Shown in pieces: positions 696 through 21,824 of a stretch of DNA of 36,416 nt. Every line of letters begins with the position of its first letter. Within the stretch, counting starts at the first letter, position 1. Origin of the DNA: Clostridia bacterium (GTDB taxonomy: Bacteria; Bacillota; Clostridia; Oscillospirales; Acutalibacteraceae); the NCBI GenBank assembly GCA_044426425.1, contig JAWXUN010000001.1, forward strand, positions 1-36,416, written 5' to 3'. The notes beneath the pieces were generated by a model. The model made no database searches. It worked only from the letters and a program-made list of their open reading frames with translations, and was not told where the DNA came from. The translations under genes and the position numbers were made by a program.

Positions 696-2375
696 CTAGT
701 CGGTATCGTATTTCAAAACAACACCTTGTCTTGTAGGTATTTTAATGTTTGGAATGTCGATTGGAATATCTTTCGGAATGTCTATCACATCAACACAATT
801 ATAGTGAATAGTTATTTTTTGCTTTTTAATAGCATTTATTTTTTCAGCTTTGAATACTTCGATTTTTTCAATCAAATCATTTAGCATTCTTGTGTTTAGT
901 TTTTTTACTCGTGTATATTTCCGCACGGCTTTCAAAAAATCATCTGTTGTAGTTGATTGGTTTTCTATCTTTTTCATTTCCTTTTTCAAAAAAGAAATTT
1001 TCTCTTTTAGTTCTGCCTGTTCTTCTTCATATTTTGTAGACATTTTCTTAAAACGCTCGTCAGAAATTTTACCCTCTACATTATCTTCGTAAATTCGCTC
1101 AAATAGTACATCAAGTTGATTATATCTAGCCATAAGCTTTCTTAAGTCTTTTTCTTGCAAATCTAATTTAGATTGATTAGCGTTTGCGGTATAACCCATA
1201 ACCGCCTTTGTAAAAATATCTTCGTATTTTGTAGAATACTTTAATAATCTTTTTATTTCAGCAAATACAATTTGCTCTAAAAAGTCTACTCTTATGTAGT
1301 GTGTATCATTGCAAGTTCCACGATTTCCTTTATAGTTTGAACAACTAAAATATTTTATATCGTGATTACCTTGATTGAAATGATAGTGTAAATTGTGCCC
1401 ACAATCGCCACAAACTAGCAAACCAGAAAACATATTTTTTTCGCCATCTGCGGTTGGTTTGTTTCTTGTGCCTTTTTTGGTTTGGACTTTTTCAAAGATT
1501 TCTCGTGAAATAATAGGCTCGTGAACATTTTTAAATATCATCATATTTTCTACATCGTTATCGTATCTTTTCTTATTCTTGTATGATTTAGTATAAGTCT
1601 TGAAATTAATAACATCACCACAATATTCTTGAATGTTTAACATTTTAATTATTGTAGATGTATTCCAAAACCAAGGCTCATTTTTTGGTTGTGTTTTACG
1701 TGGTACAACTAAACCACGGTCTAACCAGTAAAAATATGGTGACAAGATTTTTTCGTTTGTTAGTTCTCCTGCTATTTGTGTTGTACCCATTCCATCTAAA
1801 TACATGGAGTATATTTTTCTAACTATGTTAGACGAATATTCATCTACTATCCATGATTTAGGATTTTCGGGGTTTTTTATATAGCCATAAGGCGGTTTGC
1901 CCATAGGCTCACCAGAAGTGCCTTTGATTTTGTTGCTTATCCGTCGTTTTTTGCTAATATCTTTTGCATACCACTCGTTGAACAAGTTGCGAATTGGTGT
2001 TAGTTCATTTTCACCCTCATCAGTATCAATATTATCAGATACTGCAATTAGCCGTATATCATTTTCGGGAAAAAATTCCTCTGTCAATCTGCCAACTTCA
2101 ATATAGTTCCGCCCAAGCCGTGACATATCTTTTACAAGAACTGCCGAAGCTTTTTTGTTTTCTATTTCATTCAACATTTTTTGTAGTCCTGTTCGTTTCA
2201 TTGTCACACCAGATACTCCGTCATCTATGAATGGGACTATATTTGTGTATCCTTTTGATTTTGCAACTGAGGTCAATAACTTTTTTTGATTACTTATACT
2301 GTAACTTTCACCATCTAGGTTATCATCTCTTGAAAGTCTAAGATATATGAAAGCTGTGTTTTCTGTCTTTTTCAT
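696..2375 (-). CDS. Large serine recombinase (TnpX/TndX/CcrB-like integrase)
   Basis: The N-terminal resolvase domain has the catalytic-Ser motif AFIYLRLSRDD and VKDMSRLGRN. It is followed by a recombinase domain, a zinc ribbon CGDCGHNLHYH...CSNYKGNRGTC and a C-terminal coiled coil. Start set at ATG 2375 (MKKTENTAF...), which has AAGGAG at 2381-2386. The ORF-track extension to 2447 runs through the promoter and inverted-repeat region. Confidence 0.9.
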   Translation of the reverse strand: MKKTENTAFIYLRLSRDDNLDGESYSISNQKKLLTSVAKSKGYTNIVPFIDDGVSGVTMKRTGLQKMLNEIENKKASAVLVKDMSRLGRNYIEVGRLTEEFFPENDIRLIAVSDNIDTDEGENELTPIRNLFNEWYAKDISKKRRISNKIKGTSGEPMGKPPYGYIKNPENPKSWIVDEYSSNIVRKIYSMYLDGMGTTQIAGELTNEKILSPYFYWLDRGLVVPRKTQPKNEPWFWNTSTIIKMLNIQEYCGDVINFKTYTKSYKNKKRYDNDVENMMIFKNVHEPIISREIFEKVQTKKGTRNKPTADGEKNMFSGLLVCGDCGHNLHYHFNQGNHDIKYFSCSNYKGNRGTCNDTHYIRVDFLEQIVFAEIKRLLKYSTKYEDIFTKAVMGYTANANQSKLDLQEKDLRKLMARYNQLDVLFERIYEDNVEGKISDERFKKMSTKYEEEQAELKEKISFLKKEMKKIENQSTTTDDFLKAVRKYTRVKKLNTRMLNDLIEKIEVFKAEKINAIKKQKITIHYNCVDVIDIPKDIPIDIPNIKIPTRQGVVLKYDTD

Positions 2376-2402
2376 TGTTACTCCTTTCTTTTTAAGACAG
2401 TT

Positions 2403-2433
2403 AGCAAGCGTTATATATATTATAACGCTTGCT
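2403..2433 (-). promoter_or_regulatory. 13-bp perfect inverted repeat just upstream of the recombinase RBS (operator or 5'-UTR hairpin)
   Basis: agcaagcgttata (2403-2415) / tataacgcttgct (2421-2433) with a 5-nt spacer. The minus strand reads GTTATAATATATATAAC, which contains TATAAT. Confidence 0.5.
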
Positions 2434-2495
2434 CTTGTCTTTGTCATGTTTCTAAAAGTGACTTTTCAATGTCGCTTTTTAACATTGTTAAGATT

Positions 2496-3997: not shown

Positions 3998-4047
3998 TGC
4001 ATTGTACCTCTTTCTTAAATTTTCTAACTCTTTGCTTTTTTAAATTA

Positions 4048-4308
4048 CTATAACTCTTTTGGTAGTTTAGGTATTGGTCGCCAGTAAGTGACTGTTGGAT
4101 TTTCCCATTCTAAATAACCATCAATTTCCCATTCTTTGAAATTTTCATCATAGAAAGCTATACAAGTGGCATTTTCAAATATCATATTTTCAAAAGGACT
4201 CCCACTAACTAACACTAATACACATTTTTTTCCTTTTGGTAACCTATCCTTAACACTTACCCAATTATTTTGTTCCTGTTCTTCACGTTCTTGTTTTAAT
4301 TTTTTCAT
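4048..4308 (-). CDS. DUF551-like phage-type small protein (86 aa)
   Basis: NNWVSVKDRLPKGKKCVLV...VTYWRPIPKLPKE fits the DUF551 pattern (W[IV]SV.DRLP ... V.[HY]W.P.P.PP). SD GAGG lies in the conserved leader. Confidence 0.6.
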   Translation of the reverse strand: MKKLKQEREEQEQNNWVSVKDRLPKGKKCVLVLVSGSPFENMIFENATCIAFYDENFKEWEIDGYLEWENPTVTYWRPIPKLPKEL

Positions 4309-4336
4309 TGTTAGTACCTCTTTCTTAAATTTTCTT
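4256..4336. repeat. Copy 1 of two 31-nt exact repeat blocks (4256-4286 and 4306-4336)
   Basis: cttacccaattattttgttcctgttcttcac and cattgttagtacctctttcttaaattttctt recur identically at 4717-4747 and 4866-4896. A 22-nt core gtacctctttcttaaattttct also occurs at 4004-4025. Confidence 0.9.
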
Positions 4337-4337
4337 A

Positions 4338-4380
4338 ATAATACAACAAAAGCGTAATAAAGTCGAGGTTGTCGATTTTA
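4338..4380 (-). promoter_or_regulatory. Conserved promoter/operator-like module, copy 1
   Basis: The minus strand reads TAAAATCGACAACCTCGACT-N14-TTGTATTAT, giving TCGACT, a 17-nt spacer and TATTAT about 30 nt upstream of ATG 4308. A near-identical module with the same spacing is at 7359-7401. Confidence 0.5.
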
Positions 4381-7401: not shown

Positions 7402-8370
7402 AAAATATATTTCTCTTATTGTTTTTCCGTCAGTGCGTGGAATATAATTTAAAAAATTTTTGCATGAACGATAAATAATTTTGTTGTTACACCACCTTTG
7501 CAAATCTCTTGTTATGCGTGGTGCTGTTGCCTTTCTATAAATTCTAATATCGGGTGAAAATCCTAAATATTGAATTAATTTAACTCTGTAATACTCCTGC
7601 TCAAATGTTGTATTATAATTTGTTAAAACATATACATAAGCATTTCTTGATTTTGTTTCATCATAGTTCATGCACTCTTTAAAAGTGCTGAGTCCTTTGA
7701 ATATTTTTTCTTCATTTTGTAAAAAATCAAAAGCAAAGTGATACATTTTAACTTTCATTTTTTTGAAATATTCGCACACTTCTTTAGTAATAAATCTTGC
7801 ATCCAAGCCTTGTGTAAAATCAATTTTTGAACCACTATCAACAAGCTGTTGAAGTAGTTCGTTGCATGAGGAGCAGGCTAATATATTAGGGTCTAGTAAC
7901 ACAATTTCTTTTTGTCCGTTCCAAAAGTTTTTAAGGTCAGCTACTTTGTGGCAACACCTACTTTCTTTTTCACTGACTAGACAAAAACTGCAATTGTTCG
8001 GACACCCTCTTGTTAAAAATCCGTAGGCTTTATTTTTTGTTAATTGTGGATATAAATTATAATCGGGATAGCAGTTTTCAATATCTTTTGGTAACTGGTT
8101 ATCAAGTTTTTTGTTGTAGATTTCTTTGCCATTTTTTACTGAAATAGCAAAGCCAGTGCCACCTACAATAATTTCATCAGCACTTATAACTGTTTCATCT
8201 AACTGTGAATATTCGTCACCGAAAATCTTTGAAACATAAACCTTGTCATAGTGTTTCAAATGACTCATAAATTCAACATTTGCTCCTTGATTTTTCCAAT
8301 ATGCGGATATTTTCATTAACGCTAAGTTTGGGAAGTTTTTGCTATCGACATCGTAAAGACCTATATTCAT
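7399..8370 (-). CDS. Radical SAM enzyme of unknown specificity
   Basis: CxxxCxxC cluster motif in LTRGCPNNCSFCLV. Start set at ATG 8370 (MNIGLYDVD...) with AAGGAG at 8381-8386. The ORF-track start at 8403 adds only a K/R-rich 11-aa extension. Confidence 0.8.
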   Translation of the reverse strand: MNIGLYDVDSKNFPNLALMKISAYWKNQGANVEFMSHLKHYDKVYVSKIFGDEYSQLDETVISADEIIVGGTGFAISVKNGKEIYNKKLDNQLPKDIENCYPDYNLYPQLTKNKAYGFLTRGCPNNCSFCLVSEKESRCCHKVADLKNFWNGQKEIVLLDPNILACSSCNELLQQLVDSGSKIDFTQGLDARFITKEVCEYFKKMKVKMYHFAFDFLQNEEKIFKGLSTFKECMNYDETKSRNAYVYVLTNYNTTFEQEYYRVKLIQYLGFSPDIRIYRKATAPRITRDLQRWCNNKIIYRSCKNFLNYIPRTDGKTIREIYF

Positions 8371-8449
8371 ACTGACTTTTCTCCTTGTTTTTTTCTTACG
8401 CATTTTCTAACATCTCTAAGGAGTGTTAAAAATGTGGTAACGGAATTGG

Positions 8450-8557
8450 CAAGCAGGGCAAGTGGGTACCCACTTACGGCTTGTTGAGGGAAATACTCCC
8501 CCAATCCCCCTTTTAAAACGATGATAAAATCATCGTGCCACGCACTATAAATAGTGC
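8450..8557. promoter_or_regulatory. Cluster of three hairpins/palindromes in a GC-enriched intergenic region (candidate oriT and/or relaxase terminator)
   Basis: A 16-nt perfect palindrome aagtgggtacccactt (8460-8475) is flanked by caagc (8450-8454) / gcttg (8479-8483). An 8-bp stem acgatgat/atcatcgt spans 8518-8536. A 7-bp stem gcactat/atagtgc spans 8542-8557. Confidence 0.45.
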
Positions 8558-8626
8558 TGAAAAGTATTTGAAAATTTCATTGTTCAAAACTTTATTTGTG
8601 GAAAAAACACATCAAAATAAAAGGAT

Positions 8627-10039
8627 TTACCTTTCATAGTTTTGATTGTTTTTTCTTCTTTCTTGCGTGGGTATTTCTTGTTTTTCCAAAATTAAATCTA
8701 TATTTATTTTTGCTTTTTCTATTTCTTGCATTTGATTTTTTGCTGTCTTATATTCCGCATAGCAGGCATTTTTTTTCTGGACTAAATCGGAAAATTCCTC
8801 TCGTAAAAATCTAAGCGAAGGTAATTTTTTTACATCTAATGTATCAAAATATGCTTTTGCATTTTTGTGCAAATCTATCGCATTTGGATGCATTTCGAGA
8901 TATGATTTTGAATATCCAGACTTTCGATATTCAGTATAAATATCTCGTGTTTTGAGATAATTATATATGTGATTTTGCAATAGTTTGTTATCTGTAATTT
9001 TCGTTTCTAGTGATTTAATATCACTATTAATTTTTTCAAATCTGTCGCAACACTCTTGAGATTTTTGTGTTAATTTTTCATAAGAAAGTAGATTGTTTTC
9101 TCTCAAAAAATTAACAGTTTGTGCCATTTGCTTTAGATTAAAAATCTTTGCCCATCGCTCATATCCTGCACCCTTTCCCTCGTTAATTTTTGATTGAATA
9201 TCAAATAATAAATTAACAGTTTTCTTTGGTGGTGGAGCAATTAAAGTTTTTGATTTTTTGATTTTGGGATAGTCACTACTGATAATTTGCTTGATTTTTT
9301 CTTCTGAATATTCCTCGCCAAGTGAACGCAAACGGATAAACTTTTTTTGATTTTTACCTTTAAATGCTAAGTGTTTTCCACTCTTAACTTCGTAACCTGC
9401 GGACTTCATAAGATATATAAATGTAGTAAAATCTTTTGGATTTTGCTCTAAAACATCATCAATAATTTGTTTGAGTTTTTGAGAGTGCGACATAGTTTTA
9501 TTTTTATATAAACTAGATTTTTTAGTTTTGTTGTCCGCTGTTTTTTCTATTATTGATAGATTATTTTCTAAGCATATCCTATCAGATATTTTTGCTAATG
9601 CCTTGCCACTTCTTATAAAATTTCTGAATTTTCTTTCGCCATTTATTGTTGTCGAATTGAAAACAATGTGATTATGTATGTGTGCTTTATCGGTGTGAGT
9701 GCTAACAACAAATGCGTGTTTTCCTTTTGTAAAACTCATTACAAGTTCATATCCAACTTGATTAGCAAGTTCGGGTGTTATCTCGTTTGGTTTAAAAGAT
9801 TGAATAATTAAATATCCAATAACATCATTTTTTTGTTCACGACCTGTCATGTAATCATACTTTTTTTTAGACATCATAAATTCAATATCGGCAGTTTTTG
9901 GGTCACAATTAAATGATGAAACATACTTACCTTCGTTTGTTTTTTCATCATTAATTGTATAATCAATGCGATTAGAAAGACACTGATTTATAGATTTTCC
10001 TTTGTTTTTGCGTAACGATATAAGTGTTGTTCTTGCCAC
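8627..10039 (-). CDS. Relaxase / mobilisation nuclease (MobA/VirD2-type, HUH)
   Basis: Histidine triad HTDKAHIHNHIVFNS, and an N-terminal ...NRIDYTINDEKT block with the candidate catalytic Tyr. GTG 10039 with GGAGG 6 nt upstream. Confidence 0.9.
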   Translation of the reverse strand: MARTTLISLRKNKGKSINQCLSNRIDYTINDEKTNEGKYVSSFNCDPKTADIEFMMSKKKYDYMTGREQKNDVIGYLIIQSFKPNEITPELANQVGYELVMSFTKGKHAFVVSTHTDKAHIHNHIVFNSTTINGERKFRNFIRSGKALAKISDRICLENNLSIIEKTADNKTKKSSLYKNKTMSHSQKLKQIIDDVLEQNPKDFTTFIYLMKSAGYEVKSGKHLAFKGKNQKKFIRLRSLGEEYSEEKIKQIISSDYPKIKKSKTLIAPPPKKTVNLLFDIQSKINEGKGAGYERWAKIFNLKQMAQTVNFLRENNLLSYEKLTQKSQECCDRFEKINSDIKSLETKITDNKLLQNHIYNYLKTRDIYTEYRKSGYSKSYLEMHPNAIDLHKNAKAYFDTLDVKKLPSLRFLREEFSDLVQKKNACYAEYKTAKNQMQEIEKAKINIDLILEKQEIPTQERRKNNQNYER

Positions 10040-10126
10040 TAAAGACCTCCTTTAAACAAAAAAAGCAAAGCAAAGAACTGAAAATTTAAAATAAAAAATT
10101 CAGCCTTTACCTTGCCTTAAGTTTAA

Positions 10127-10318
10127 CTATATTAAAATAATTATAAATTGTAAATGCAATATTGAGGGATAGAAAAATTTCACTTTTCTATCTAACAAAT
10201 CTGTATTGATATAAAAATTTTCTGAATAACCTGCAAAAAGCAAGTTATCTTTTCCTTGTTTTTTATTATATATTTTCATGTCACCACGCAAAATATTAAT
10301 AAGTTTTTTTAATTTCAT
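10127..10318 (-). CDS. Hypothetical small protein (63 aa) between mobC and the relaxase gene
   Basis: ATG 10318 (MKLKKLINIL...) preceded by GAGAGGTGGG. No family recognised. Confidence 0.35.
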   Translation of the reverse strand: MKLKKLINILRGDMKIYNKKQGKDNLLFAGYSENFYINTDLLDRKVKFFYPSILHLQFIIILI

Positions 10319-10386
10319 TCTTTGTCCCACCTCTCATAAATACCTTAATTTAATTTTATCAAAAATTAAAAATTAAGTCTATGATG

Positions 10387-10722
10387 TCATGTTGAAAGTA
10401 ATTTTTTTAAAATATTTGCAGAGTTATCACGAATTTCCTCATAACTTTTTTTGATTTCGTCAATATCATCAATGTAAATATTACCAGTTTGATGTAGCTT
10501 TTTTACAAGTTGATTTAGACTATTGTTAGTAGCTCTAAGAGTCTTTAACATTAAATCAATTGATTTTAAATCCAGTTGAAGAAGATAACCATTTAATGCC
10601 ATTTTTCGCAAATACAATCCCATGTTTGTTATACCGCAATATTTCATATTTTCCTGTATTTGCTTATTTTCTTTCTCGTTCACTCTGAATTTTTTTTGAA
10701 TGTTTCTTTCTCTTTTTTTCAT
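10387..10722 (-). CDS. mobC: MobC-family relaxosome accessory protein
   Basis: KKFRVNEKENKQIQENMKYCGITNMGLYLRKMALNG...NNSLNQLVKKLHQTGNIY matches the MobC pattern. ATG 10722 overlaps the polyvalent-gene TGA (ATGA). Confidence 0.85.
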   Translation of the reverse strand: MKKRERNIQKKFRVNEKENKQIQENMKYCGITNMGLYLRKMALNGYLLQLDLKSIDLMLKTLRATNNSLNQLVKKLHQTGNIYIDDIDEIKKSYEEIRDNSANILKKLLST

Positions 10723-13700
10723 CGCTCAACCTCATTAGATAAACTTTTTTTAGGCTCTTGTTGTGTTTTTTGCTGTGGGTTTTCGGCTTTAGACTCTAAA
10801 CTCATTTCTGTTTCAAGTTTTTCTAATTGCTTAACTTTCTCACTTAAAATATCTTCTTTTGTAAACGGTTTACTCAATTCACTTTTAGCTGTTTCAAGCT
10901 GATTTTCAACATTTTCAAGCATATTTTTATTGTGAAATATTTTGATTTCGACTCTATCAAGTTCGTTATCAATTCTCAAAATATTACCTCTTGGGTCATC
11001 ACCTAGTGTAATATGGTGACTGATTTCGCCTTTTAGTCTAAGATTATATTCATTAGAAAAAGTGTTGTAATGTAAAAACATATCCATTCCACGATAAGTT
11101 CCTAATTGCATTTCTTGTGCGTCTAGCAATGATTTACACTTTGTAATTAATGCAAGTCCTGCAATTTCTTTATCTTTATAGACAATATTATCTATTGTCA
11201 TATTGTTAAAAAAGTTCTCTTTTATAGGATATTTTTCTTTAAGCATTAGCATATCTTTTTCCAAGCCTGCAATTGCAATTTTGTAATTGTTTATATCTTC
11301 TGGGAATTTTTTTGTGATATTATCTTCAAGACGATAATGGATATTTTTATAATCTGCTTTTTCTATTTTTAATTTAGAAATTTCAAGCGACAAGTCCATT
11401 GCAAGTTTTAAGTTTGGGTCACCTGCACAAAGAGCCTTTACCTCTGCACAGCTTAAAGCAAACTCGTCTAAATCATCACAAGAACGAACAGGCGATTTTG
11501 AGGTCATAATTTGACTTATGAATTTTTGTTTTTTCTCTAGTGTTTGCCATAAATAAGCATCAAAAGTACCATCTGTTACATATCTAAAGATATGTGCTTC
11601 CTTGTTCATATTTCCTTGTCGTTCGATACGTCCACTACGTTGTCGCAAATCCCCTGGTCGCCATGGAGCGTCAAGGTCATGCATTGCGACAAGTCTGTCT
11701 TGTACATTCATGCCTGCACCACATTTTGAGGTGCTACCAATCATAACTCTAACAGAACCAGTACGCATTTTTTCAAAAAGTTTTTGTTTTTGAACCTCTG
11801 TTTTTGCTTCATGTATAAATGCAATTTCTTCTCGTGGAACACCTCTTGAAACAAGTTTTTCACGGATATCGTCATACACACAAAATTCTTTTGAATTTGC
11901 TTTTGCTTTTGGTGTAGACATATCACAAAAAATCAACTGTGTTAATTTTTCAGCTTTGTTATCTTCCCAAATCTTGAAAACATTATTAATACAAGCATTT
12001 ACCTTGCTGTTTGGGTCATCTGGCAACATAGTGTTAAATAATCGTTGGTCTAAGCCTATCTTTCGTCCGTCTGATGTTATTTTTAGCATATTGTCAGCAC
12101 TTGGGTCAACTTTTCTATTATGAACATCGGTGGAACGCTGGCTAAGGCTTTGTATCATTTCTTTTTGAATTTCTGTCGGCTGTGTAACCACATTTGTGTA
12201 TGTCATAGTTGGAGTTGGTAAATCTAGTTGGTCTGCTGTTTTGATGTCAGCAACTTCCTTAAACATATTCATAAGTTCTGGAAGATTGAAAAATTTTGAA
12301 AAACGTGTCCTTAGTCTAAAACCTGTTCCCTCGGGTGCTAGTTCACTTTCTGTTGATGTTGTTGCAAAAGTACTTGCCCACGAGTCAAAATGCATTAAAT
12401 TTTGTCTTTTTACTGTGGCATATTGTAAATATCTTTGCATTACATACAACTCTGACATTGAGTTCATTACAGGTGTACCAGTTGCAAATACTACACCTTT
12501 ACCACCTGTAATCTCGTCTAAATAGCGACACTTTAAAAGCATATCCGCTGATTTTTGGCTTTCAGTAGTACTGAGTCCTGCAATATTACGCATTTTTGTA
12601 AATACAAAACCATTTTTATATGCGTGTGCTTCGTCTACAACTAGCATATCAACACCAAGCTGCTCGAATGTTACTACATCATCTTTTTTGTAGTTTGCTT
12701 GCATTTTTTCAAGTCTTTCTTCAAGTTTTTTTCTAGTGCGTTCTAATTGCCTTATTGTAAATCTCTCACTATTTTTGTATTTAAGTTCATTAATACCAGT
12801 TAAAACTTCTTGAATTTGTTCATTAAGCATTCTTTCTTGTCTTTCTTGAGAAATAGGAATGCGTTCAAATTGACTATGTCCTATGATAATTGCATCATAT
12901 TCACCTGTGGCAATTCTTGCACAGAATTTTTTGCGGTTTTTTGTTTCAAAATCTTTTTTTGTCGCTACTAAAATATTAGCAGACGGATATAATCGCAAAA
13001 ATTCTCCTGCCATTTGTTCTGTTAAGTGGTTAGGAACTGCAATTAAGGCTTTATTACATAAACCTAAACGCTTTTTCTCCATTACACCTGCAATCATTTC
13101 AAAACTTTTACCTGCTCCAACTTCATGAGCGAGTAATGTATTGTTGCCGTAAATAATACGAGCGATTGCATTTATTTGATGTTCTTTTAATGTTATTTCT
13201 GGATTAATTCCACCAAAAGTAATATGACTACCGTCATATTCACGAGGTCTTGTTGAATTAAATTTATCGTTGTAAAGTCTTGTGAGAAATTGCCTGCGTT
13301 CTTGATTGTTCCAAATCCATTCCCTAAACTTTTCTTTAATTGCATCTTGCTTTTGCTGTGCAACTTCTGTTTCATTTCTATTAATGACTCTTTTTTCTTT
13401 GCCGTCAATATCCGTAACTGTATCATAAATTCTTGTATCACGAAGATTTAGACAATCTTCTAAAAGTCTATACGCATTTGCTCTTTCTGTACCAAAAGTC
13501 GCTGTTGCTAAAACATTATCAGAACTTATAGCATTTTTAGATGTGATATTCCACTCACCTGTTACTGGTGAAAAGTCTACATTAATACCATAACTACTAT
13601 TATAACCTACTTGCAAATAATCTGGTGTTTGTAAAGTTTCATACATGAATTGTCGGATATATTTTTTATCAATCCAAGTTGCACCTAAGCGAACTTCAAT

Positions 13701-16700
13701 TTCACTTGCTTCGAGGTCTTTTGGTTGGACAAGTTCTAGCATATCTATGTGATTTTGAAATTCGGGATATTTGCTTACTATACATTTGACCTCTCCTAGT
13801 TTTTCTCTTACATTACCACTCAAATACTCGTCAGCTGTGAAAAATCTTGCTTTTTCGTTTTCTTCTCCACAATGTAGAGGGTCTTTGAATATTATTCCAT
13901 TTAGTTCGACTACAAGTCTATTTAAATCGTACTTATCACCGAGCAACTCTGCCATATAATTAACATCTACATAGCCTTTTTTGCCTATTGATATAGCTAA
14001 TGCTTCTGATGGTGTTTCTGCTGATGTTGGAATAACAAAGTTTTTGATAGTTCTTTTTGTAAAAATTGCTGATTTTTCTTTCAAAGTTCCATCATCATTT
14101 AGGTTTTCGAGGGAAGTTAATAAATGATAGGAATTATCTTCAGCTAAAGCCTTTGCGTTGGCTTTACTGCTTATTAATCCATGCTTTTTAGTAAAACTAT
14201 CATATATTTCATTTAATTGTTTTTGGCTTTGTTCAATCGCTTCAGAGCTGTATTCTTCAAGTTGCAAGCGTATAACTTCATTCAAACAGGACCTTACTTC
14301 AATTAAACCTTTTATTCGGTCTAAATTGTTTTTTTGTAAGGTCATTGTTGAATTTTGGCGATAATACACATTATTATCAATAACAGCATAAGAATAATTT
14401 TTAACTCGTGGGTCAGCAGGAACTACATCGTTTTTATTAGAATTTTTTTCGCTAATCTCTTCAAAACTACTCTCAAAGTCGATTTCTCCAACGATATTAT
14501 TAATAGCTTTGTCGAGTTGTTCGCTTAGGTTAGCACCCTCAAACGCTGTGCAAGTACTTTTCATGCCGTACTGGCTTGATACCATTTCCATTTTACCAAG
14601 CACCATGTGAGGATTTTCTACAAAGTAGCTGTTAATAGATATATTGTTTTCATCATATCCCAAGTGTGCCCAGTCGCATTCAATGTCAATTGGTCGCTCT
14701 CTTTTTTGTAAAAATATAATATCAGACGTAACATCTGTTCCTGCGTTAGCCTTGAATGCATTGTCTGGAAGTCTTATCGCACCCAAAAGTTCCGCCCTTT
14801 GTGCGAGATATCTCCTTACTTTTGGATTTTCCTTATCAAGTGTTCCTTTTGATGTCACGAAAGCAACTACACCTCCTGCCCTTATCTTATCTAGTGATTT
14901 TGCGAAAAAGTGGTCATGAATAAGGAAGTTATTTTTTTCATATTTTCGCTCATATAATTTGTAATTTCCAAAAGGAACATTACCAATAGCAACATCAAAA
15001 AAATTGTCGGGATATTCTGTTTTTTCAAAACCTTTGATATCAATATTTGCTTGTGGATATAGTTTTTGAGCAATTCGCCCAGTTACCGAGTCTAGTTCCA
15101 CACCGTAAAGATTAGAATTTTTCATATTCTCGGGTAACATTCCGAAAAAGTTTCCAACACCACAGCTAGGCTCGAGGATATTTCCAGTTTCAAATCCCAT
15201 ATTTCCAATTGCTTTATACATCGCATTAATAATTGTTGGTGATGTGTAATGTGCATTTTGAACAGTTGCCCTAGCATTAGAATACTCTTCATCATTTAAC
15301 AATGATTTTAGTGTGTTAAAATTGTTGTTATTTTCTTCAAAAACTTCTGCTAAACCACCCCAACCAACATATTTACTCAATATTTCTTTTTCGCTGTCCA
15401 TTGCTAGTCGGTTTTCGCTTTCAATTGTTTGCAAAGTTTCTATTGCTTCAATGTTGTTTCTAATTTTCTCGGACTTTGTTCCGATACCTAAATTATAATT
15501 TGTAATATGATAATTTTCTTCTATTAGTTCTTCTTTTTTCTCAAGTTTAAAATTTTGGTGAGAAATATTGTCAAACCAAGTAATCATAAAACTTTTCAAA
15601 TCTGCAACTACCTTTGGTGATACATCATCTACTGAATAGTATTGTCCTATTGAGTCTTGAAGAAAAGATGTAGGATAAATTCCATTGTTTTCTATTTTAA
15701 AGGTAATTTCTGGGTCACGCATCAAATCTCCGTTTTGCTCGTAGTAATGAGCAATGCTATATTCACCATAACCAATATTTTCAATAACTAAATCTTCATA
15801 GCCTTCTGATTTAAACTTTAGATAATCTGTTTTATTTTCAATGATTGGTTGCATATATGGGTATAGCTTTTTATATAAGTTTTGTTCGGTTCTATTTGCA
15901 ACTGGAGGAGCATTTAGACTATCTTTCCATGCCTTAAACTTATCATAAACCTCTGATGTCATGCTATCGCCTAAAATTTCACCACGAGGATTTATTGATG
16001 TTGTTTGAGTGGTATACACCATATCACCACTTTTACCAACTTGGTATTTGACTCCGTCTATGTTATATCCAATCACATCTCCGTCATTGTACTTAGAATA
16101 GTCAATATCTAAATCATGAAAATCTTTAAAAAATATTAATTCTGGACTTTGATTTTCTGATACTATATTTTTCTTTTCCCAAACAGCTAAAGCTTCTGTT
16201 AGTTCTTCACCTGTGTAACCTCTAAAATTTTCATTAATAGAGTAATCAGACTTGCTAATTTCTCTTGCTTCAATCTCAACTTTTAAGGCATTAAATTTAT
16301 ATGTATCATTGATTTTAATGACTTTTTCTATCCACTCTTCTTTAGGATAAAATTTTTCAGCATCATCATTGATTTTTGCAACAGCAAGTGGTGGTAAACT
16401 ATCTCCATAGATTTTAACTGTTCCTGTTTCACTAATATGTGCAACTGTTTTGTAGTCATTGCTTTCTGTATCTAAATAATTCCAAACAGTTGTACCGTTA
16501 CCTAAATTCCCATAACCTAAAGCAAATTCCTTGCCTTGCTCATTTGTAAAAACTTCTAACTCCATATCCACAAAATTACTGCTACTTTTTACAAATTCAC
16601 TAGCGATTGAACTATACATGATTGTTTTTGATGTGTTAATTGCAGGCTCGTTACTATCTTCTAATAATATTTCTGACTCGTCTAAATCATCAAAACCATT

Positions 16701-18389
16701 CCAAACATCATCAAGCACTAGTTTTGCATTTTCATCAACAATTAAACCTGCTGTTTCATCTCCATATTCTTCATGTTCTAGTAAAAAATAATCTTTACCA
16801 TTTCTAACATCTTTGTCTATAACATACCAAGTTCCAATATGTCCCTCAACTTCAATGTTGTCACTTTTTTCATCTAAAATAATATTTTTTTCTGTACCTA
16901 TCTCTTTTTTATCAGCTGTGATATAATTTGTTTTAACTTGCTCGTTTTCTTTCTCGCAAACAAGAACATTATAACCTTTTGCGTTTAAATAATTTGTATA
17001 CATATCTAGTGAGTGTGCAGGTATGCCAACCATAGTGACTTTTTCGTCACTATTAATAGATATATTTCTTTTAGTTAAAGTTAAATCTAGTTTTTCAGCC
17101 ATTATTTCGGCATCAGCGTTGTAAGCTTCAAAAAAATCACCTAAGCGATATAGTAATATATCATCTTGGTGATTTCCTTTTACATCTAAATAGCCTTGGT
17201 AAAATGGCTTGTATTCTAAAGAAATAGCGGACTCACTTGGTGCTTGTGCACTTTGTTCGTCCGCTATTGGTTCTGCTATATTTGTAAACAAGTTTGTTTG
17301 TTCGCTTGTTACTTGGTCTTGCTTTAGTTGTATATCAAGTCCTTTATCACGAAGTTCTCCGCTTCTTCGTTCAAATTCATCATGTGCCTTGCCCACTCTA
17401 TCGGATATTCCTCTTTGTTCGGTGGTGGGTTTTTCTCGAGGGACTGGCTCATTATTGTTGCTATTCTCTCTTTTGCTATCCTGTGTATCTCGTGTAGATG
17501 TGGGAACAGGGTCATGCTGAGGACTAAGTGATTGTACAATCCCGCTTTGTGCTCCTTGAGGTAATCTCTCCTCATTATTCCATATTTCCCTAGAGGTTTC
17601 ACTGGTTGTTCCTCCATTTCTAAGTCTGGAAGATACACGTTGCCTGCTTTCTTGTAATTGAAGTTGTTGTTTATCATATTGTTTGCTCCTCTCAAATAAA
17701 TATATGGTTTTTGATATATCTGTCAAAACTGGTTTAAGATTTTGGCTTATCGCTGTTCCTATCTCTGTTATGTTTTGTACAGTTTCGTTGTTAAAGATAA
17801 TCGAATGTTGTTCTTGCTTAAAAACTTTGCTGTTATCTTTGCTTAGTTTGCCGAGCAAAGAATATTCAATACTTTTTTCGAGAACAATTTTGAAATTATT
17901 TTGTTTGGTTTCGCTTATCTCACTATTATCATACTCCAAACTTATATTATTTGCAAGTTTGTGGATAGCGTTTTCTATATTTTCTTCATCAACACCATAT
18001 TTTTCACTAAACATTTTTTTTAGTGGTTCAGAATACTCTTCGTTAAAATTCCAAGTATATGGTGTTTTTGCATTTTTCTTTTCGTTAGTGTCTGAAATAT
18101 CAAAAACATATCTAATTTTACAAGTTTCATCTTGTGGGTCAATTAGAGCAATTCCAGAAGCACCAGACCTAACATAACGGTTCATTTTGTTTCCCCACAA
18201 ACGATATTCTGCACAGGCGGTGGCTTTTGGATTTTGTGCATATATCAAAACTTGCTCATGATAATCATATTTGTGAAAATTCGACATTACACTCAGTAAT
18301 TCACACCATTTAAGTGAATTTTCTGCTGTGTTTTGACTTGTTTTTGTATAAACTTCTAAATATTTGTTATATTTTTCAATATTAGCCAT
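10719..18389 (-). CDS. Polyvalent protein (2556 aa): ArdC-N-like, disordered linker, MutS-domain-I-like, LPD-type modules, N6-adenine DNA methyltransferase, SNF2-family helicase, coiled-coil tail
   Basis: Uninterrupted ORF; ATG 18389 behind AAGAAAGAGG. Motifs were located by hand (see the domain features below). Confidence 0.9.
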   Translation of the reverse strand: MANIEKYNKYLEVYTKTSQNTAENSLKWCELLSVMSNFHKYDYHEQVLIYAQNPKATACAEYRLWGNKMNRYVRSGASGIALIDPQDETCKIRYVFDISDTNEKKNAKTPYTWNFNEEYSEPLKKMFSEKYGVDEENIENAIHKLANNISLEYDNSEISETKQNNFKIVLEKSIEYSLLGKLSKDNSKVFKQEQHSIIFNNETVQNITEIGTAISQNLKPVLTDISKTIYLFERSKQYDKQQLQLQESRQRVSSRLRNGGTTSETSREIWNNEERLPQGAQSGIVQSLSPQHDPVPTSTRDTQDSKRENSNNNEPVPREKPTTEQRGISDRVGKAHDEFERRSGELRDKGLDIQLKQDQVTSEQTNLFTNIAEPIADEQSAQAPSESAISLEYKPFYQGYLDVKGNHQDDILLYRLGDFFEAYNADAEIMAEKLDLTLTKRNISINSDEKVTMVGIPAHSLDMYTNYLNAKGYNVLVCEKENEQVKTNYITADKKEIGTEKNIILDEKSDNIEVEGHIGTWYVIDKDVRNGKDYFLLEHEEYGDETAGLIVDENAKLVLDDVWNGFDDLDESEILLEDSNEPAINTSKTIMYSSIASEFVKSSSNFVDMELEVFTNEQGKEFALGYGNLGNGTTVWNYLDTESNDYKTVAHISETGTVKIYGDSLPPLAVAKINDDAEKFYPKEEWIEKVIKINDTYKFNALKVEIEAREISKSDYSINENFRGYTGEELTEALAVWEKKNIVSENQSPELIFFKDFHDLDIDYSKYNDGDVIGYNIDGVKYQVGKSGDMVYTTQTTSINPRGEILGDSMTSEVYDKFKAWKDSLNAPPVANRTEQNLYKKLYPYMQPIIENKTDYLKFKSEGYEDLVIENIGYGEYSIAHYYEQNGDLMRDPEITFKIENNGIYPTSFLQDSIGQYYSVDDVSPKVVADLKSFMITWFDNISHQNFKLEKKEELIEENYHITNYNLGIGTKSEKIRNNIEAIETLQTIESENRLAMDSEKEILSKYVGWGGLAEVFEENNNNFNTLKSLLNDEEYSNARATVQNAHYTSPTIINAMYKAIGNMGFETGNILEPSCGVGNFFGMLPENMKNSNLYGVELDSVTGRIAQKLYPQANIDIKGFEKTEYPDNFFDVAIGNVPFGNYKLYERKYEKNNFLIHDHFFAKSLDKIRAGGVVAFVTSKGTLDKENPKVRRYLAQRAELLGAIRLPDNAFKANAGTDVTSDIIFLQKRERPIDIECDWAHLGYDENNISINSYFVENPHMVLGKMEMVSSQYGMKSTCTAFEGANLSEQLDKAINNIVGEIDFESSFEEISEKNSNKNDVVPADPRVKNYSYAVIDNNVYYRQNSTMTLQKNNLDRIKGLIEVRSCLNEVIRLQLEEYSSEAIEQSQKQLNEIYDSFTKKHGLISSKANAKALAEDNSYHLLTSLENLNDDGTLKEKSAIFTKRTIKNFVIPTSAETPSEALAISIGKKGYVDVNYMAELLGDKYDLNRLVVELNGIIFKDPLHCGEENEKARFFTADEYLSGNVREKLGEVKCIVSKYPEFQNHIDMLELVQPKDLEASEIEVRLGATWIDKKYIRQFMYETLQTPDYLQVGYNSSYGINVDFSPVTGEWNITSKNAISSDNVLATATFGTERANAYRLLEDCLNLRDTRIYDTVTDIDGKEKRVINRNETEVAQQKQDAIKEKFREWIWNNQERRQFLTRLYNDKFNSTRPREYDGSHITFGGINPEITLKEHQINAIARIIYGNNTLLAHEVGAGKSFEMIAGVMEKKRLGLCNKALIAVPNHLTEQMAGEFLRLYPSANILVATKKDFETKNRKKFCARIATGEYDAIIIGHSQFERIPISQERQERMLNEQIQEVLTGINELKYKNSERFTIRQLERTRKKLEERLEKMQANYKKDDVVTFEQLGVDMLVVDEAHAYKNGFVFTKMRNIAGLSTTESQKSADMLLKCRYLDEITGGKGVVFATGTPVMNSMSELYVMQRYLQYATVKRQNLMHFDSWASTFATTSTESELAPEGTGFRLRTRFSKFFNLPELMNMFKEVADIKTADQLDLPTPTMTYTNVVTQPTEIQKEMIQSLSQRSTDVHNRKVDPSADNMLKITSDGRKIGLDQRLFNTMLPDDPNSKVNACINNVFKIWEDNKAEKLTQLIFCDMSTPKAKANSKEFCVYDDIREKLVSRGVPREEIAFIHEAKTEVQKQKLFEKMRTGSVRVMIGSTSKCGAGMNVQDRLVAMHDLDAPWRPGDLRQRSGRIERQGNMNKEAHIFRYVTDGTFDAYLWQTLEKKQKFISQIMTSKSPVRSCDDLDEFALSCAEVKALCAGDPNLKLAMDLSLEISKLKIEKADYKNIHYRLEDNITKKFPEDINNYKIAIAGLEKDMLMLKEKYPIKENFFNNMTIDNIVYKDKEIAGLALITKCKSLLDAQEMQLGTYRGMDMFLHYNTFSNEYNLRLKGEISHHITLGDDPRGNILRIDNELDRVEIKIFHNKNMLENVENQLETAKSELSKPFTKEDILSEKVKQLEKLETEMSLESKAENPQQKTQQEPKKSLSNEVER
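11520..13193 (-). other. SNF2/DEAD-like helicase domain of the polyvalent protein
   Basis: Walker A HEVGAGKSF (GAGKS at 13104-13118), DEAH box VVDEAH (12624-12635), motif VI QRSGRIERQGN. Confidence 0.85.
14685..15512 (-). other. N6-adenine DNA methyltransferase domain of the polyvalent protein
   Basis: SAM-binding motif I ILEPSCGVGNFFG and catalytic motif IV NVPFG (14967-14981). Confidence 0.85.
16950..17204 (-). other. MutS domain I-like module of the polyvalent protein
   Basis: DDILLYRLGDFFEAYNADAEIMAEKLDLTLTKR...MVGIPAHSLDMYTNYLNAKGYNV parallels the MutS N-terminal block (F[YF]R.GDFYE.F..DA...a..L.i.LT.R ... cG.P). Confidence 0.65.
17324..17677 (-). CDS. TnpV-like protein (117 aa) encoded out of frame inside the polyvalent gene (candidate overlapping gene)
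   Basis: ATG 17677 with GAGAGGAG (17686-17693) 8 nt upstream; the frame is stop-free to 17324. ...GNVYLPDLEMEEQPVKPLGKYGIMRRDYLKEHKAGLYNHLVLSMTLFPHLHEIHRIAKER...PIEWARHMMNLNEEAENFVIKDLIYN follows the TnpV family pattern as I recall it. Confidence 0.5.
   Translation of the reverse strand: MINNNFNYKKAGNVYLPDLEMEEQPVKPLGKYGIMRRDYLKEHKAGLYNHLVLSMTLFPHLHEIHRIAKERIATIMSQSLEKNPPPNKEEYPIEWARHMMNLNEEAENFVIKDLIYN
17700..18389 (-). other. ArdC-N-like (DUF1738-type) ssDNA-binding domain of the polyvalent protein
   Basis: FHKYDYHEQVLIYAQNPKATACAEYRLWGNKMNRYVRSGASGIALID fits the ArdC N-terminal pattern (yS..N..Li..Q.p.AT.v..y..W...gR.VkkGekGI.i). Confidence 0.6.
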
Positions 18390-18463: not shown

Positions 18464-19255
18464 TTATCGACAATCAAAATCATTTTCTTTATTATGATTT
18501 TTTATTCTAGCAATTTCTAATATTTTTCTTAACCTATATTGTATATGTTTTTCAATAGATAAAAGCCTTGCTTCTGGCAAATTATATCTTGAATGTCTAG
18601 TAAATTTAAAACCAATCAATTTTCTTAATTCTCTTATTTGTTTTAAACCTATTAATTCACTGCAAATTGTTTCAAATGAAAGTCTATATGGTGTTGTTCT
18701 TGTTTTTGCATACTCATTCAAATTTTCAAAATCTTTAGACATACCAAAATTAAATAAAGATAATCCATTATCAAAAATTGGTGCTGTGGATATTATTTTA
18801 CCACTTTTATTATCCCTTAAAACTCCAAAATTTCCAAAATGTCTATCTTCATTATAGATAACAGCATCGAAAATTAACATACTTTTTAAATCTTCTAAAG
18901 CTTCATTGCCTAAATTATCTTTGTAATAATCTAAATATGATTTCAAACTATCTCCTTTAAACAATCTACTTGCAGATATAAAAGATGTGTTAATGTCCGT
19001 AAAAAGTTTACACTTACAAGCTAATATACCTTTCCATTGTTCTAAATCATATTCTACTGCTTTTAGACCCATTTTTTTTGCTATTTGATATGCATAATAT
19101 TCGCTATATGGTTCGTTTCCAGTATTAATAGCACCTTCTGTACCACCTTTATATAAATATATTCCACTCGCTTTATCAAATCTCCAAGCTTTTCGGAGCA
19201 TACCATTAGTTGTTAATTCTGGTGATGTTGAAAAAGCTTGATTACTTTCTGACAC
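18464..19255 (-). CDS. HipA-like Ser/Thr kinase core, apparently 5'-truncated (possible pseudogene)
   Basis: Catalytic and Mg motifs YNEDRHFGNFGVL and APIFDNGLSLF are present. The first canonical start is GTG 19255. The frame stays open and protein-like for 40 more codons up to a TGA at 19376-19378, with no ATG, GTG or TTG in that stretch. Confidence 0.55.
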   Translation of the reverse strand: MSESNQAFSTSPELTTNGMLRKAWRFDKASGIYLYKGGTEGAINTGNEPYSEYYAYQIAKKMGLKAVEYDLEQWKGILACKCKLFTDINTSFISASRLFKGDSLKSYLDYYKDNLGNEALEDLKSMLIFDAVIYNEDRHFGNFGVLRDNKSGKIISTAPIFDNGLSLFNFGMSKDFENLNEYAKTRTTPYRLSFETICSELIGLKQIRELRKLIGFKFTRHSRYNLPEARLLSIEKHIQYRLRKILEIARIKNHNKENDFDCR

Positions 19256-19439: not shown

Positions 19440-21785
19440 TTATATTTCCATACTATTGTTATTTTTTCTAAGTCTTTCTAAAATTGATATTTTTTCTTTC
19501 TTAATAGCAACTGTTCGCTTGCCGTTGCTCATAATCATGTGCTTATTATCAACAGAATTGTGATGAACACTATAACCTAGTCTTTCCATTTCTTTTAGTG
19601 AAATATCTACAATAGAAAATGTTCCTCTAGGAGTTTTTACACTCTCACCAGTTCTTGCTGTTTTCACAATATCTGTTTGTTCTTCGTATTGCTTAAATTC
19701 AGACTCGGACAAATAACTGTTTTGCGACAACATACTACGTATTTTCTTTTCCACATAAGAAAAATTCATATTAACATCCATGCTTTTTAGAGTAAATGTT
19801 AACATAGAATTTTCATATTTCAATGTAATTCCTACATCAGAAAAATCAACAGAATTTTGTTCTAACGCTTCTGAATACACAAGTTCTAAATGTTCTTCAA
19901 TTATATCATAATTGTCCGTTTCTTGATATAATTTATATATATCAATTTTTTTCTCACTAAAATTTCCTGCTCCAGAACGAATGAAAAAGTCACAACTTTC
20001 AGAAATGTTTTCAATTTCAAACATACTTAAGGTGATTTCTGTTTCAATACTATTTTCACTTTCTAATTTTTCGGTTAATTTGATTAATTCTTCGTTATCT
20101 GAAAGAATATTGTTAGCTTCTTGTATTGATATTTCTTTGTGAGGATATCTATCCTCGTTAATTAATACATCAATATGATTTACAATTTCCTCATAAGAAA
20201 TTGTAAAAGGTTGACCGCTACGCTCAAAATATAAATCATCAGCTTTTGATTGGATAACATCTAAACAATCACCATATTCAGTATAGTAGGAACTATCTAA
20301 ATTTTTATAAAAATTCAAAACACTTTCAAGCTTTTCAGCTTTGGAACTGTCAGCTGTGAAAACATCATAAATTGCGAACTGTGATATTTGTGGTACAGGT
20401 TCAAAACTTGGAGCGATTAAAAAATTATCTATCAAATTTGAAATTTCATTTTTGTCTAAATCATAGGTCTTATCTCTTATTTTTACAAAATTTTCTAGTT
20501 TGTTAAAACCAAATCCATCAACGTAATGAAAACTTATAGTGTTATCTATATTAACACCGATAATATCACTGACAGAAAGTGAATGACCATGAAAATCTTT
20601 TGGTAAATCAAGATTAAATTTTGTATATATATTATTGAGAATTACATTTACATCATCAGTATCCATTCCTAAATCGCTACTGTAAACTACGTTATAATTA
20701 TCACGAGAAACAGACAAATTCGCTTTTGCAAGTTCATCTATACGCATAAATCTATAATCTCTATTGTCTGAGTCCTCTATTAATTGGTAAATAGCAAAGG
20801 AATGTGAAAACTCTAAAAAGTTATTTTCCACACTATTTGAATTGTTTTCTATTCCGTCCATTGTTTTTCTATAATTATAGTAATTTAACCATTCTGATTT
20901 TTTGAAACCGAAAAAAATATCAGCGTTGTGTTCACCTATATTTACAATATAGTCAGTTTTCACTTCTCTTTCAGTGTTATCTTGGAATAGCATATATGGT
21001 TTGCAAAATTGCAAATACTCACTTACTGCCGTTGGTGAAATTGTTAACGGAAGAAACGGCACTATTTGCATATTTGTATAACCATATAAACGCATTTCTT
21101 CAATGCTTGCAAACGATGGCAAATATTCAGTAGAAGTGTATGTTTCAAATGCAGATGTGTTATATAAGTTTTCAAAAATATCAATATACTCATAAAAATC
21201 TTGAACCTTTTTCAATGTGTGCAAGCTTTGGAATAAATCATCAAAGCCATTCCATACATTATTTATTATAATTTTTCTGTTTTCATCTGCAATAATATAT
21301 GGACTATCTTCGTCATGTTTGTTTTCAAGAAGAAAAAAATCTTTTTCCTCTACAATTGTAGAGTCTAAGGTAAACCAACCATTTCCCATGCCCTCAAGAC
21401 TTATCATTTCAGACTCGCTAGTGATTTTTTCGTAATTATTTCTAAAATCGGCTACTTCTAATTTTTTTGTGTGCTGAATATCTACAAGCTCTTCAATTTC
21501 TCCGTCAAAATCATCATCAGCTAAATAGCTAACTTCTTGTAAATTGTATTCTGTTATATCCCAAAAATTCGCATTTTCGGTACTGTCATGGAATAAACAA
21601 TAATTTGATTGATATTTTGCAAAAATTTCTCTTGCTTCTTGTTCGTTTTTGAAGTGATTAATACGTTCTTTTTCGGTGTAACCTATAATATCAAGTATAT
21701 GAGGTTTTATATTTTTTTCAGCTAATTCAGAACAATTAATTGTTAAAGCATTCTCGGCTATTTCATAAACTAATATTTCTTTCAT
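19440..21785 (-). CDS. Large YodL-domain protein with LPD-type modules (about 781 aa)
   Basis: YodL-like block FAIYQLIEDSDNRDYRFMRIDELAKANLSVSRDNYNVVYSS...FNLDLPKDFHGHSLSVSDIIGV...HYVDGFGF (about 20487-20807). Start set at ATG 21785 (MKEILVYEI) with AAAGGA 9 nt upstream; ATG 21818 is also possible. Confidence 0.8.
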   Translation of the reverse strand: MKEILVYEIAENALTINCSELAEKNIKPHILDIIGYTEKERINHFKNEQEAREIFAKYQSNYCLFHDSTENANFWDITEYNLQEVSYLADDDFDGEIEELVDIQHTKKLEVADFRNNYEKITSESEMISLEGMGNGWFTLDSTIVEEKDFFLLENKHDEDSPYIIADENRKIIINNVWNGFDDLFQSLHTLKKVQDFYEYIDIFENLYNTSAFETYTSTEYLPSFASIEEMRLYGYTNMQIVPFLPLTISPTAVSEYLQFCKPYMLFQDNTEREVKTDYIVNIGEHNADIFFGFKKSEWLNYYNYRKTMDGIENNSNSVENNFLEFSHSFAIYQLIEDSDNRDYRFMRIDELAKANLSVSRDNYNVVYSSDLGMDTDDVNVILNNIYTKFNLDLPKDFHGHSLSVSDIIGVNIDNTISFHYVDGFGFNKLENFVKIRDKTYDLDKNEISNLIDNFLIAPSFEPVPQISQFAIYDVFTADSSKAEKLESVLNFYKNLDSSYYTEYGDCLDVIQSKADDLYFERSGQPFTISYEEIVNHIDVLINEDRYPHKEISIQEANNILSDNEELIKLTEKLESENSIETEITLSMFEIENISESCDFFIRSGAGNFSEKKIDIYKLYQETDNYDIIEEHLELVYSEALEQNSVDFSDVGITLKYENSMLTFTLKSMDVNMNFSYVEKKIRSMLSQNSYLSESEFKQYEEQTDIVKTARTGESVKTPRGTFSIVDISLKEMERLGYSVHHNSVDNKHMIMSNGKRTVAIKKEKISILERLRKNNNSMEI

Positions 21786-21824
21786 GGGTAAAGTCCTTTC
21801 GTAATACAAAAACTGCATAGTTTT

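Follow-up and report, generated by a model that had tools for sequence, protein, structure and literature searches.

A probable tnpV gene nested out of frame within the polyvalent protein gene of a clostridial conjugative element

The stretch of DNA analysed here (36,416 nucleotides (nt) of contig JAWXUN010000001.1 from a Clostridia bacterium; hereafter the window) is a conjugative element encoding a relaxase, a TraG-like ATPase, a CHAP-domain protein, a topoisomerase, a Toprim/DUF3991 protein and a large serine recombinase. Its reverse strand carries a 7.7-kb open reading frame (ORF) for a giant multidomain protein, and a second, shorter ORF on the same strand lies wholly inside it, in the +1 frame. 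A preliminary description of the sequence had claimed that this second frame is a true out-of-frame gene of the TnpV family, with its own Shine-Dalgarno (SD) sequence, laid over a disordered linker of the larger protein. Homologous loci support this claim well beyond the window. The features concerned are listed below, with lengths in amino acids (aa) and structure confidence as the predicted local distance difference test (pLDDT).

17324..17677 (-): nested tnpV coding sequence, with ATG at 17677-17675, 117 codons and stop TAA at 17326-17324, in the +1 frame of the polyvalent gene
17686..17693 (-): Shine-Dalgarno sequence GAGAGGAG, 8 nt before the tnpV ATG; the main frame reads E-R-S here
10719..18389 (-): host gene for a polyvalent protein of 2556 aa, made up of an N-terminal ArdC-N-like domain, a linker and the Pfam domains MutS_I, LPD18, DUF6908 and SNF2-type helicase
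17684..18389 (-): N-terminal folded domain of the host protein, residues 1-235, from the alignment (pLDDT 84-94); used without TnpV to find homologous loci
17169..17633 (-): disordered linker of the main frame, residues 253-407 (pLDDT 26-33, no secondary structure)
16929..17207 (-): MutS_I, the first recognised domain past the linker, residues 395-487 (PF01624, E 4.1e-21)

Counted from a TTG, the open run of the second frame (17324..17695, reverse strand, in the ORF listing of the window) spans 123 codons, and its phase relative to the host ORF is +1 ((18389-17677) mod 3 = 1). Both this run and its ATG at 17677 were found where they had been described, the SD reported 8 nt upstream reads GAGAGGAG at 17693-17686, and the earlier hand translation agrees with the 117-aa product read from the sequence. 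The product matched the Pfam TnpV profile PF14198 over positions 1-111 of 111, with an E value of 4.5e-28 and 97.9 bits (cut-off 27), which bears out the family membership that had been claimed. It also matched PHROG 24764, a family without assigned function, with an E value of 1e-23. The residues that are invariant in the TnpV family (Y8, P17, G33, L40 and E107) and those that are nearly so (K31, Y32, L57, H60 and W95) are all present in the window protein. An AlphaFold2 model built from a 17-sequence alignment predicted a beta-hairpin followed by four helices, with a mean pLDDT of 86.7 and values above 94 for residues 30-117.

The host protein shares these bases through its residues 238-355, and the main frame over them is rich in Ser, Thr, Gln, Arg, Glu and Pro, beginning ESRQRVSSRLRNGGTTSETSREIWNNEERLPQGAQSG. 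This composition is in agreement with the linker of the preliminary description. In an AlphaFold2 prediction made from a 43-sequence alignment, residues 1-250 of the host protein reached pLDDT values of 84-94, and residues 253-407 only 26-33, without secondary structure.

Taken alone, the open second frame of the window is modestly improbable. When synonymous codons were permuted over the whole gene, a +1 run of at least 123 codons arose in 11% of trials on this single sequence, and the local probability that the TnpV frame is open, given the main-frame protein, was 0.011. The earlier statement that two such overlapping frames are improbable by chance thus holds only moderately for this single sequence. 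The decisive evidence is comparative and does not lie in the length of the ORF.

We therefore rely on loci sampled from each side of the overlap. The host-side sample was gathered with the N-terminal-domain alignment only, taking one genome per species and keeping the best 80 of 497 relatives. Six of its contigs end before the region, and in all 74 evaluable loci the big ORF contains TnpV in the +1 phase. The TnpV ORF is complete in 72 of these and cut by the contig end in the other 2, and the host ORF runs on beyond the TnpV stop in all 74. These loci come from Lachnospiraceae, Oscillospiraceae, Christensenellales and metagenome-assembled genomes labelled Bacilli, with locus GC contents of 0.23-0.62. 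The TnpV-side sample consisted of 80 metagenome loci picked by the TnpV motif out of at least 600 matches. Here, tnpV was nested in 75 and free-standing in 5; of the nested copies, 74 are preceded in the host frame by the N-terminal domain.

The same arrangement was found on plasmids. A tblastn search of plasmids with the 117-aa product returned free-standing annotated TnpV genes together with matches inside genes of about 6 kb annotated as ‘helicase-related’ or ‘SNF2’, which belong to plasmids of C. perfringens and C. botulinum. In these plasmids, an intact ORF of 119-122 codons begins 709-736 nt after the start of the big gene, always with an offset of 1 mod 3. The Listeria monocytogenes plasmid pLIS14 (L090) carries a TnpV-like ORF at 8641-9003 in the +1 frame of a SNF2-related gene at 7953-14003. 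This ORF is divergent, with GKIG in place of GKYG and a hidden Markov model (HMM) E value of 1e-10, and was missed by tblastn with the window protein; it has an ATG start and the SD GAGAGGG. About 95 Listeria plasmid records share the host N-terminal domain. A DNA search of the region against plasmids gave no match.

At several loci (L014 at 891-2186, L039, L044, L066, L068 and L075) the host ORF ends early and the nested tnpV is intact; in L014, the host ORF stops only about 120 nt past the TnpV stop. Here tnpV may have survived damage to the gene around it, or the assemblies may be in error.

The start signals of the nested gene were counted in 35 non-redundant representatives sharing less than 90% identity. 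The start codon is ATG in 30, GTG in 3 and TTG in 2. An SD core (GGAG, GAGG or AGGA) is present in 33 of the 35, typically as GAAAGGAG, and the spacer measures 8 nt in 25. The preliminary description had proposed checking whether the alternate frame, its ATG and its SD are conserved in homologues; the frame and a start codon are kept in every evaluable homologue, and the SD core in 33/35. At the SD, the host frame encodes Arg by AGG, a codon used for only 10.8% of the Arg residues elsewhere in these genes, and this choice against the codon bias indicates that the constraint acts at the nucleotide level. In several lineages, a TAA or TAG stands directly 5' of the ATG in the TnpV frame, so that a frameshift from upstream cannot reach TnpV in those lineages. 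We found no RNA structure masking the SD of the window, the ribosome-binding region being without significant structure (z 0.24).

Selection on the two frames was measured by an OLGenie-type partition of nonsynonymous and synonymous change (dN/dS) over 25 independent pairs, with a bootstrap confidence interval (CI). The loci are phylogenetically related, and representatives and independent pairs were used to limit the effect of this. For the TnpV frame, dNN/dSN was 0.235 (CI 0.18-0.28) and dNS/dSS was 0.157. For the host frame within the overlap, dNN/dNS was 1.17 (0.94-1.39) and dSN/dSS was 0.78 (0.52-1.31). In 59 moderately diverged pairs, differences at TnpV codon positions 1, 2 and 3 were 0.204, 0.162 and 0.387; the lowest value is that of position 2, which is the third codon position of the host frame. 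In the control, the N-terminal domain read in the host frame, the corresponding values were 0.275, 0.200 and 0.530. On average, representatives were 42% identical in TnpV and 41% in the N-terminal domain, and 27% identical in the host frame where it overlaps TnpV. These results indicate that the TnpV frame is under purifying selection at the protein level and that the amino-acid sequence of the host frame is effectively neutral, with avoidance of stop codons as the only detectable constraint.

This avoidance was measured by resampling the TnpV codons synonymously with local codon usage. The expectation was 3.5-15 stops in the host frame per locus (mean 7.0), and none was found in 35/35 representatives, with a probability of an open frame of 0.02 or less in each. 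The summed log10 probability of the open host frame was about -105, and -63 for the 21 representatives with less than 70% identity. The third frame contained 13.6 stops versus 10.6 expected and is thus not depleted. In free-standing tnpV genes, the frame equivalent to the host frame contains 4, 4 and 14 stops in the genes that were checked and 5-10 in the metagenome set. The annotated free-standing TnpV at 4004-4342 of a Cohnella herbarum plasmid (L089) has 0 stops in this frame and may derive recently from a nested copy or be what is left of one; a divergent ‘hypothetical protein’ call overlaps it.

Long ORFs of 103-179 codons also lie antisense to the overlap, at 17209-17520 (+) and 17683-18177 (+) in the window, at 8999-9370 (-) in L001 and at 8765-9304 (-) in L003. 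We considered a third coding layer on this strand and rejected it, as no antisense frame is consistently open in the 35 representatives and most loci have stops there. The long antisense ORFs are explained as a by-product of the purine-rich sense strand (57-68% purines).

These data bear on four other explanations of the overlap. The least probable, which we regard as practically negligible, is that the second frame is a chance ORF, or the product of a sequencing frameshift in the window, with a spurious likeness to TnpV. The permutation result, in which one trial in nine or so reaches the observed run, would suit it as long as a single sequence is considered, but neither the full-length Pfam match nor the identical arrangement in about 150 independent loci would be expected from it. 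Programmed +1 frameshifting or transcriptional slippage, by which TnpV would be a C-terminal extension of the ArdC-N-like domain and would not use a start of its own, is very improbable, if less so than chance. It derives its appeal from database entries (about 370-410 aa) that carry the N-terminal domain in frame with TnpV, and from one of these, P0051, in which the shift coincides with an A-run. In two assemblies, a 408-aa protein of this type (L091 4056-5282 and L092 7001-8227) could be traced in the DNA to a 1-nt deletion inside GKYG (REIW|MLRR...), with 3 host-frame stops downstream and the rest of the polyvalent gene fragmented. P0051 is of the same lineage as these two, but its shift, judged from the protein sequence only, lies elsewhere, at the A-run. 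Shifts at differing points and a host frame that decays downstream led us to reject both recoding and natural fusion as the origin of these proteins, which look like mutations, decaying copies or assembly errors. A frameshift also leaves no place for the stop codons directly before the ATG in several lineages, nor for the conserved SD, 8-nt spacer and ATG, and no shared slippery motif was apparent in the aligned upstream regions, in which no formal search was made.

The two remaining explanations each deny one of the frames its role, and we consider both improbable, to an equal degree and slightly less so than frameshifting. If tnpV had been swallowed as its flanking genes fused by read-through, its frame could now be an untranslated relic. 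The host frame is indeed continuous at all loci, gene callers rarely report the nested ORF (only 16 came from a profile search of 5.8 billion called proteins), and the translation of TnpV is something that we infer. A relic would nevertheless gain stops and lose its start, and the ORF is intact in 72/72 whole loci, in the same phase in 74/74 and nested in 75/80 of the metagenome loci, with an ATG and an SD that are conserved, the latter against the codon bias. The dNN/dSN of 0.235 and the concentration of substitutions at third positions of TnpV codons are likewise at odds with a relic. Conversely, the locus might consist of three cistrons, namely an N-terminal domain gene, tnpV and a helicase/methylase gene, with the host frame open over tnpV through composition only. 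Such a reading would fit a host-frame sequence that is neutral and predicted to be disordered, and a purine-rich segment does lower the frequency of stops, with antisense ORFs arising as a by-product. Composition does not account for the 3.5-15 host-frame stops that are expected per locus from TnpV and codon usage and absent from 35/35 representatives, nor for the third frame, in which stops are not depleted. Moreover, free-standing tnpV of similar composition has 4-14 stops in the frame in question, with one exception, and the host frame gains stops once it has been broken by an indel, as in L091 and L092.

Thus, 17324-17677 on the reverse strand is very probably a functional tnpV gene that lies wholly within a conjugative element's polyvalent gene, in its +1 frame. 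The comparison of loci shows that both frames are maintained and that the signals for starting translation are kept. Ribosomes that translate the whole 7.7-kb ORF would pass straight through tnpV and produce a disordered tether of about 120 residues, which would join the N-terminal (ArdC-N-like) domain to the MutS_I, LPD18, DUF6908 and SNF2-helicase modules. The sequence of this tether would be immaterial, freedom from stop codons being the sole demand on it. Other ribosomes would start at the conserved SD and ATG and produce a separate, folded TnpV of 117 residues. They would most likely do so within the polyvalent mRNA itself, although a shorter mRNA transcribed from a promoter inside the gene could also serve. 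Conserved motif islands in the linker would then be shadows of TnpV features: ERS of the SD, REIW or REVR of GKYG, and D-x-Q-L of LIY-x-stop.

A candidate for the internal promoter is present in the window.

17699..17726 (-): promoter-like TTGACA-16-TATATT, 11/12 consensus matches, ending 5 nt before the SD

A transcript from this site would start about at the tnpV SD. A subset of homologues of high GC content (e.g. L025, L039, L051, L056 and L069) keeps TTGCAA-17-TATACT about 87 nt upstream of the ATG, and no promoter-like motif common to all homologues was found across the aligned upstream regions.

Several points weigh against the embedded gene as just described. We infer that TnpV is translated from its nested position. 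The site at 17699-17726 is a possible internal promoter, and promoter-like sites of equal quality numbered 21 in the 2.5-kb region versus 12 expected. The dN/dS estimator and the resampling test are simple implementations of our own. Selection was measured in related lineages rather than in that of the window, for which the databases searched hold no close relative (the best matches reach 33% identity for the host protein and about 42% for TnpV). Both samples consist of the best-scoring loci, and more distant relatives could differ. Finally, the structure offers no functional clue: Foldseek searches of the Protein Data Bank (PDB) and BFVD with the TnpV model gave no match to Xis or any other protein at E <0.1, and a PDB profile search with TnpV gave no significant match.

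The protein itself is a member of the TnpV family. Compared with the TnpV of Tn4451 and Tn4453 (PF14198), it has the same length, a full-length HMM match and the same residues Y8, P17, GKYG, H60, W95 and AEE..L..LIY, and it shares the GAAAGGAG-type SD with free-standing tnpV genes. The difference is one of context and not of protein family. In Tn4451-type elements, tnpV is free-standing, either follows tnpX immediately, overlapping it by 4 nt, or lies at the element's end, and has its other frames closed, whereas tnpV of the window is wholly inside another gene and about 15 kb from the recombinase.

The recombinase of the window is of the same type as TnpX, as the preliminary description had noted.

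696..2447 (-): TnpX-type large serine recombinase (Pfam Resolvase, Recombinase, Zn_ribbon_recom, DUF4368), about 15 kb from the nested tnpV

The further suggestion that TnpV has a recombination-accessory role tied to such a recombinase is not supported. An Xis-like role of TnpV in excision is an older suggestion, found in PMC3158075. According to PMC5704250, which cites Lyras 2004, TnpX is the sole transposon protein needed for transposition of Tn4451. We do not consider TnpV likely to be a directionality factor or Xis-like excisionase, since TnpX alone suffices, no Xis-like or other fold was matched, and non-integrating plasmids of C. perfringens, C. botulinum and Listeria also carry the nested gene. 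In the stretches examined of plasmids with nested tnpV, we saw no large serine recombinase. With low confidence, we suggest instead that TnpV, expressed along with the polyvalent gene, is an accessory factor that helps DNA moved by conjugation to be transferred or established. The weak preference for this role comes from the contexts of tnpV, of which DNA moved by conjugation is the common denominator.

Embedded out-of-frame genes as such are known. Small proteins encoded within larger genes on the same strand include comS in srfAB of Bacillus subtilis, Rz1 in Rz of phage lambda and E in D of phiX174, and in such pairs the inner frame is generally considered the more recent. To our knowledge, these three span 46-91 codons and are restricted to narrow lineages or phages. 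What nested tnpV has in common with them is a small protein with an SD and a start codon of its own, read out of frame within a longer gene of the same orientation. It differs in its length of 117 codons, in belonging to a widespread and well-folded family, and in that the embedded frame is under protein-level selection and the host frame unconstrained. The pair is also conserved across Clostridia and a Listeria plasmid, over GC contents of 23-62%. With viral overprinting, as described in reviews, it shares the combination of one folded and constrained frame with one that is disordered and tolerant. However, the disordered frame here is a tether within a pre-existing multidomain protein and not a new small protein, and the overlap therefore looks like a gene fusion across an intervening gene. 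Within the limits of our search of the literature on TnpV overlap and on embedded or out-of-frame genes of conjugative elements, we found no prior report of a nested tnpV, and the arrangement appears to be unreported. Out-of-frame internal starts have been mapped in E. coli by ribosome profiling with retapamulin (bioRxiv 10.1101/520783).

In a rough neighbour-joining tree, free-standing TnpVs are interleaved among the nested ones and the deepest branches are all nested; the tree is of a short protein, without support values, and effectively unrooted. Free-standing TnpVs are up to 60% identical to some nested ones, and nested TnpVs differ from one another by up to about 75%. The identical architecture and phase of all nested loci argue for a single origin. 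Together, these observations suggest that tnpV became nested once, long ago, and that free-standing copies escaped later. A fuller scenario is possible, although we consider it less likely than not: most tnpV genes would be nested and the nested state old, the linker would have arisen when N-terminal-domain and helicase/methylase genes fused across tnpV, and the free-standing genes of Tn4451-type elements would be later escapes. That TnpV itself was born in the linker is unlikely, and is disfavoured for a protein so well folded and so strongly constrained.

Long, fully embedded overlapping genes on the same strand that are conserved over many bacterial lineages are very rare, and most proposals have been disputed. 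With about 150 independent loci and opposite signatures of selection on its two frames, nested tnpV could serve as a reference case for dual coding in bacteria. It would explain the conserved motif islands in what had been a ‘low-complexity linker’ of a widespread class of polyvalent proteins, and it suggests a route of gene fusion that retains the gene in between. It would also reveal a population of tnpV genes invisible to standard gene callers, to judge by about 500 relatives of the host gene among species representatives and at least 600 metagenome motif matches, the latter mostly from the human gut. Lastly, it would link TnpV to the genes by which conjugative elements, carriers of resistance genes among gut Firmicutes, are transferred and established, and would offer an experimental handle on its function.

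The way in which these genes appear in databases is in agreement with the earlier statement that standard annotation misses the nested gene. A word-indexed protein search with the 117-aa product gave no match, and the profile search of called proteins gave only the 16 noted above, which we attribute to the sensitivity limit of the index and to the nested ORF being rarely called. Two of the 16, L084 and L085, are on readable contigs, and both are themselves nested. Exact-sequence look-ups gave no record of the protein P0002 or of the polyvalent protein of the window. On the metagenome contig from JGI that carries L085 (5229-12315 and beyond), the alternative calls are the full polyvalent gene, or TnpV at 6001-6315 followed by a truncated gene from 6342; calling the nested ORF thus makes the annotation split the giant gene. 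A phmmer search over 1.84 billion representatives returned 2559 TnpV relatives, and the longer of these fall into two classes. One comprises the proteins described above that have the host N-terminal domain in frame with TnpV. In the other, to which P0030, P0025, P0038 and P0166 belong, a ParA-like ATPase, a membrane protein or another protein without relation to TnpV continues in frame into a complete C-terminal TnpV. We rejected these ParA::TnpV-type proteins as true fusions. They fit a position of tnpV as the outermost gene of a Tn4451-type element, where a host gene broken by the insertion would run on into tnpV at the element's end. NCBIfam has a model for neither TnpV nor the host N-terminal domain.

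The host protein has the properties of polyvalent proteins, with several unrelated domains including LPD18 in 2556 aa and a place within a conjugation module. Beyond MutS_I, its Pfam domains are LPD18 (502-574), DUF6908 (852-947), an SNF2-related domain (SNF2-rel_dom) and Helicase_C. With this set of domains, it is a typical member of the giant multidomain proteins surveyed by Iyer et al. 2017 (PMC5512222); that survey makes no mention of TnpV, overlapping frames or the linker. We call the N-terminal domain ArdC-N-like with reservation. The genes in which its tblastn matches fall (residues 13-102, 30-40% identity, E about 1e-7) bear the annotation ArdC-like ssDNA-binding, and the ArdC-N profile (PF08401) gave no Pfam match for the window protein and a weak one (E 0.002) for 1 of 43 homologues. 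PDB searches with the 500 N-terminal residues gave no significant match, which leaves the ArdC-N label unconfirmed. Neither the protein of 792 aa with LPD18 and YodL domains directly upstream of the polyvalent gene (19440-21818, reverse strand) nor the HipA_C-like kinase ORF of 263 aa that also adjoins it upstream (18464-19255, reverse strand) contains a TnpV-like frame.

At AT-rich loci, the dual-coding segment is richer in GC than its surroundings. The values are 0.42 vs 0.31 in the window (17327-17677), 0.36 vs 0.25 in L001, 0.33 vs 0.25 in L003 and 0.34 vs 0.27 in L079. Such a rise would follow from a need to keep both frames free of stop codons.

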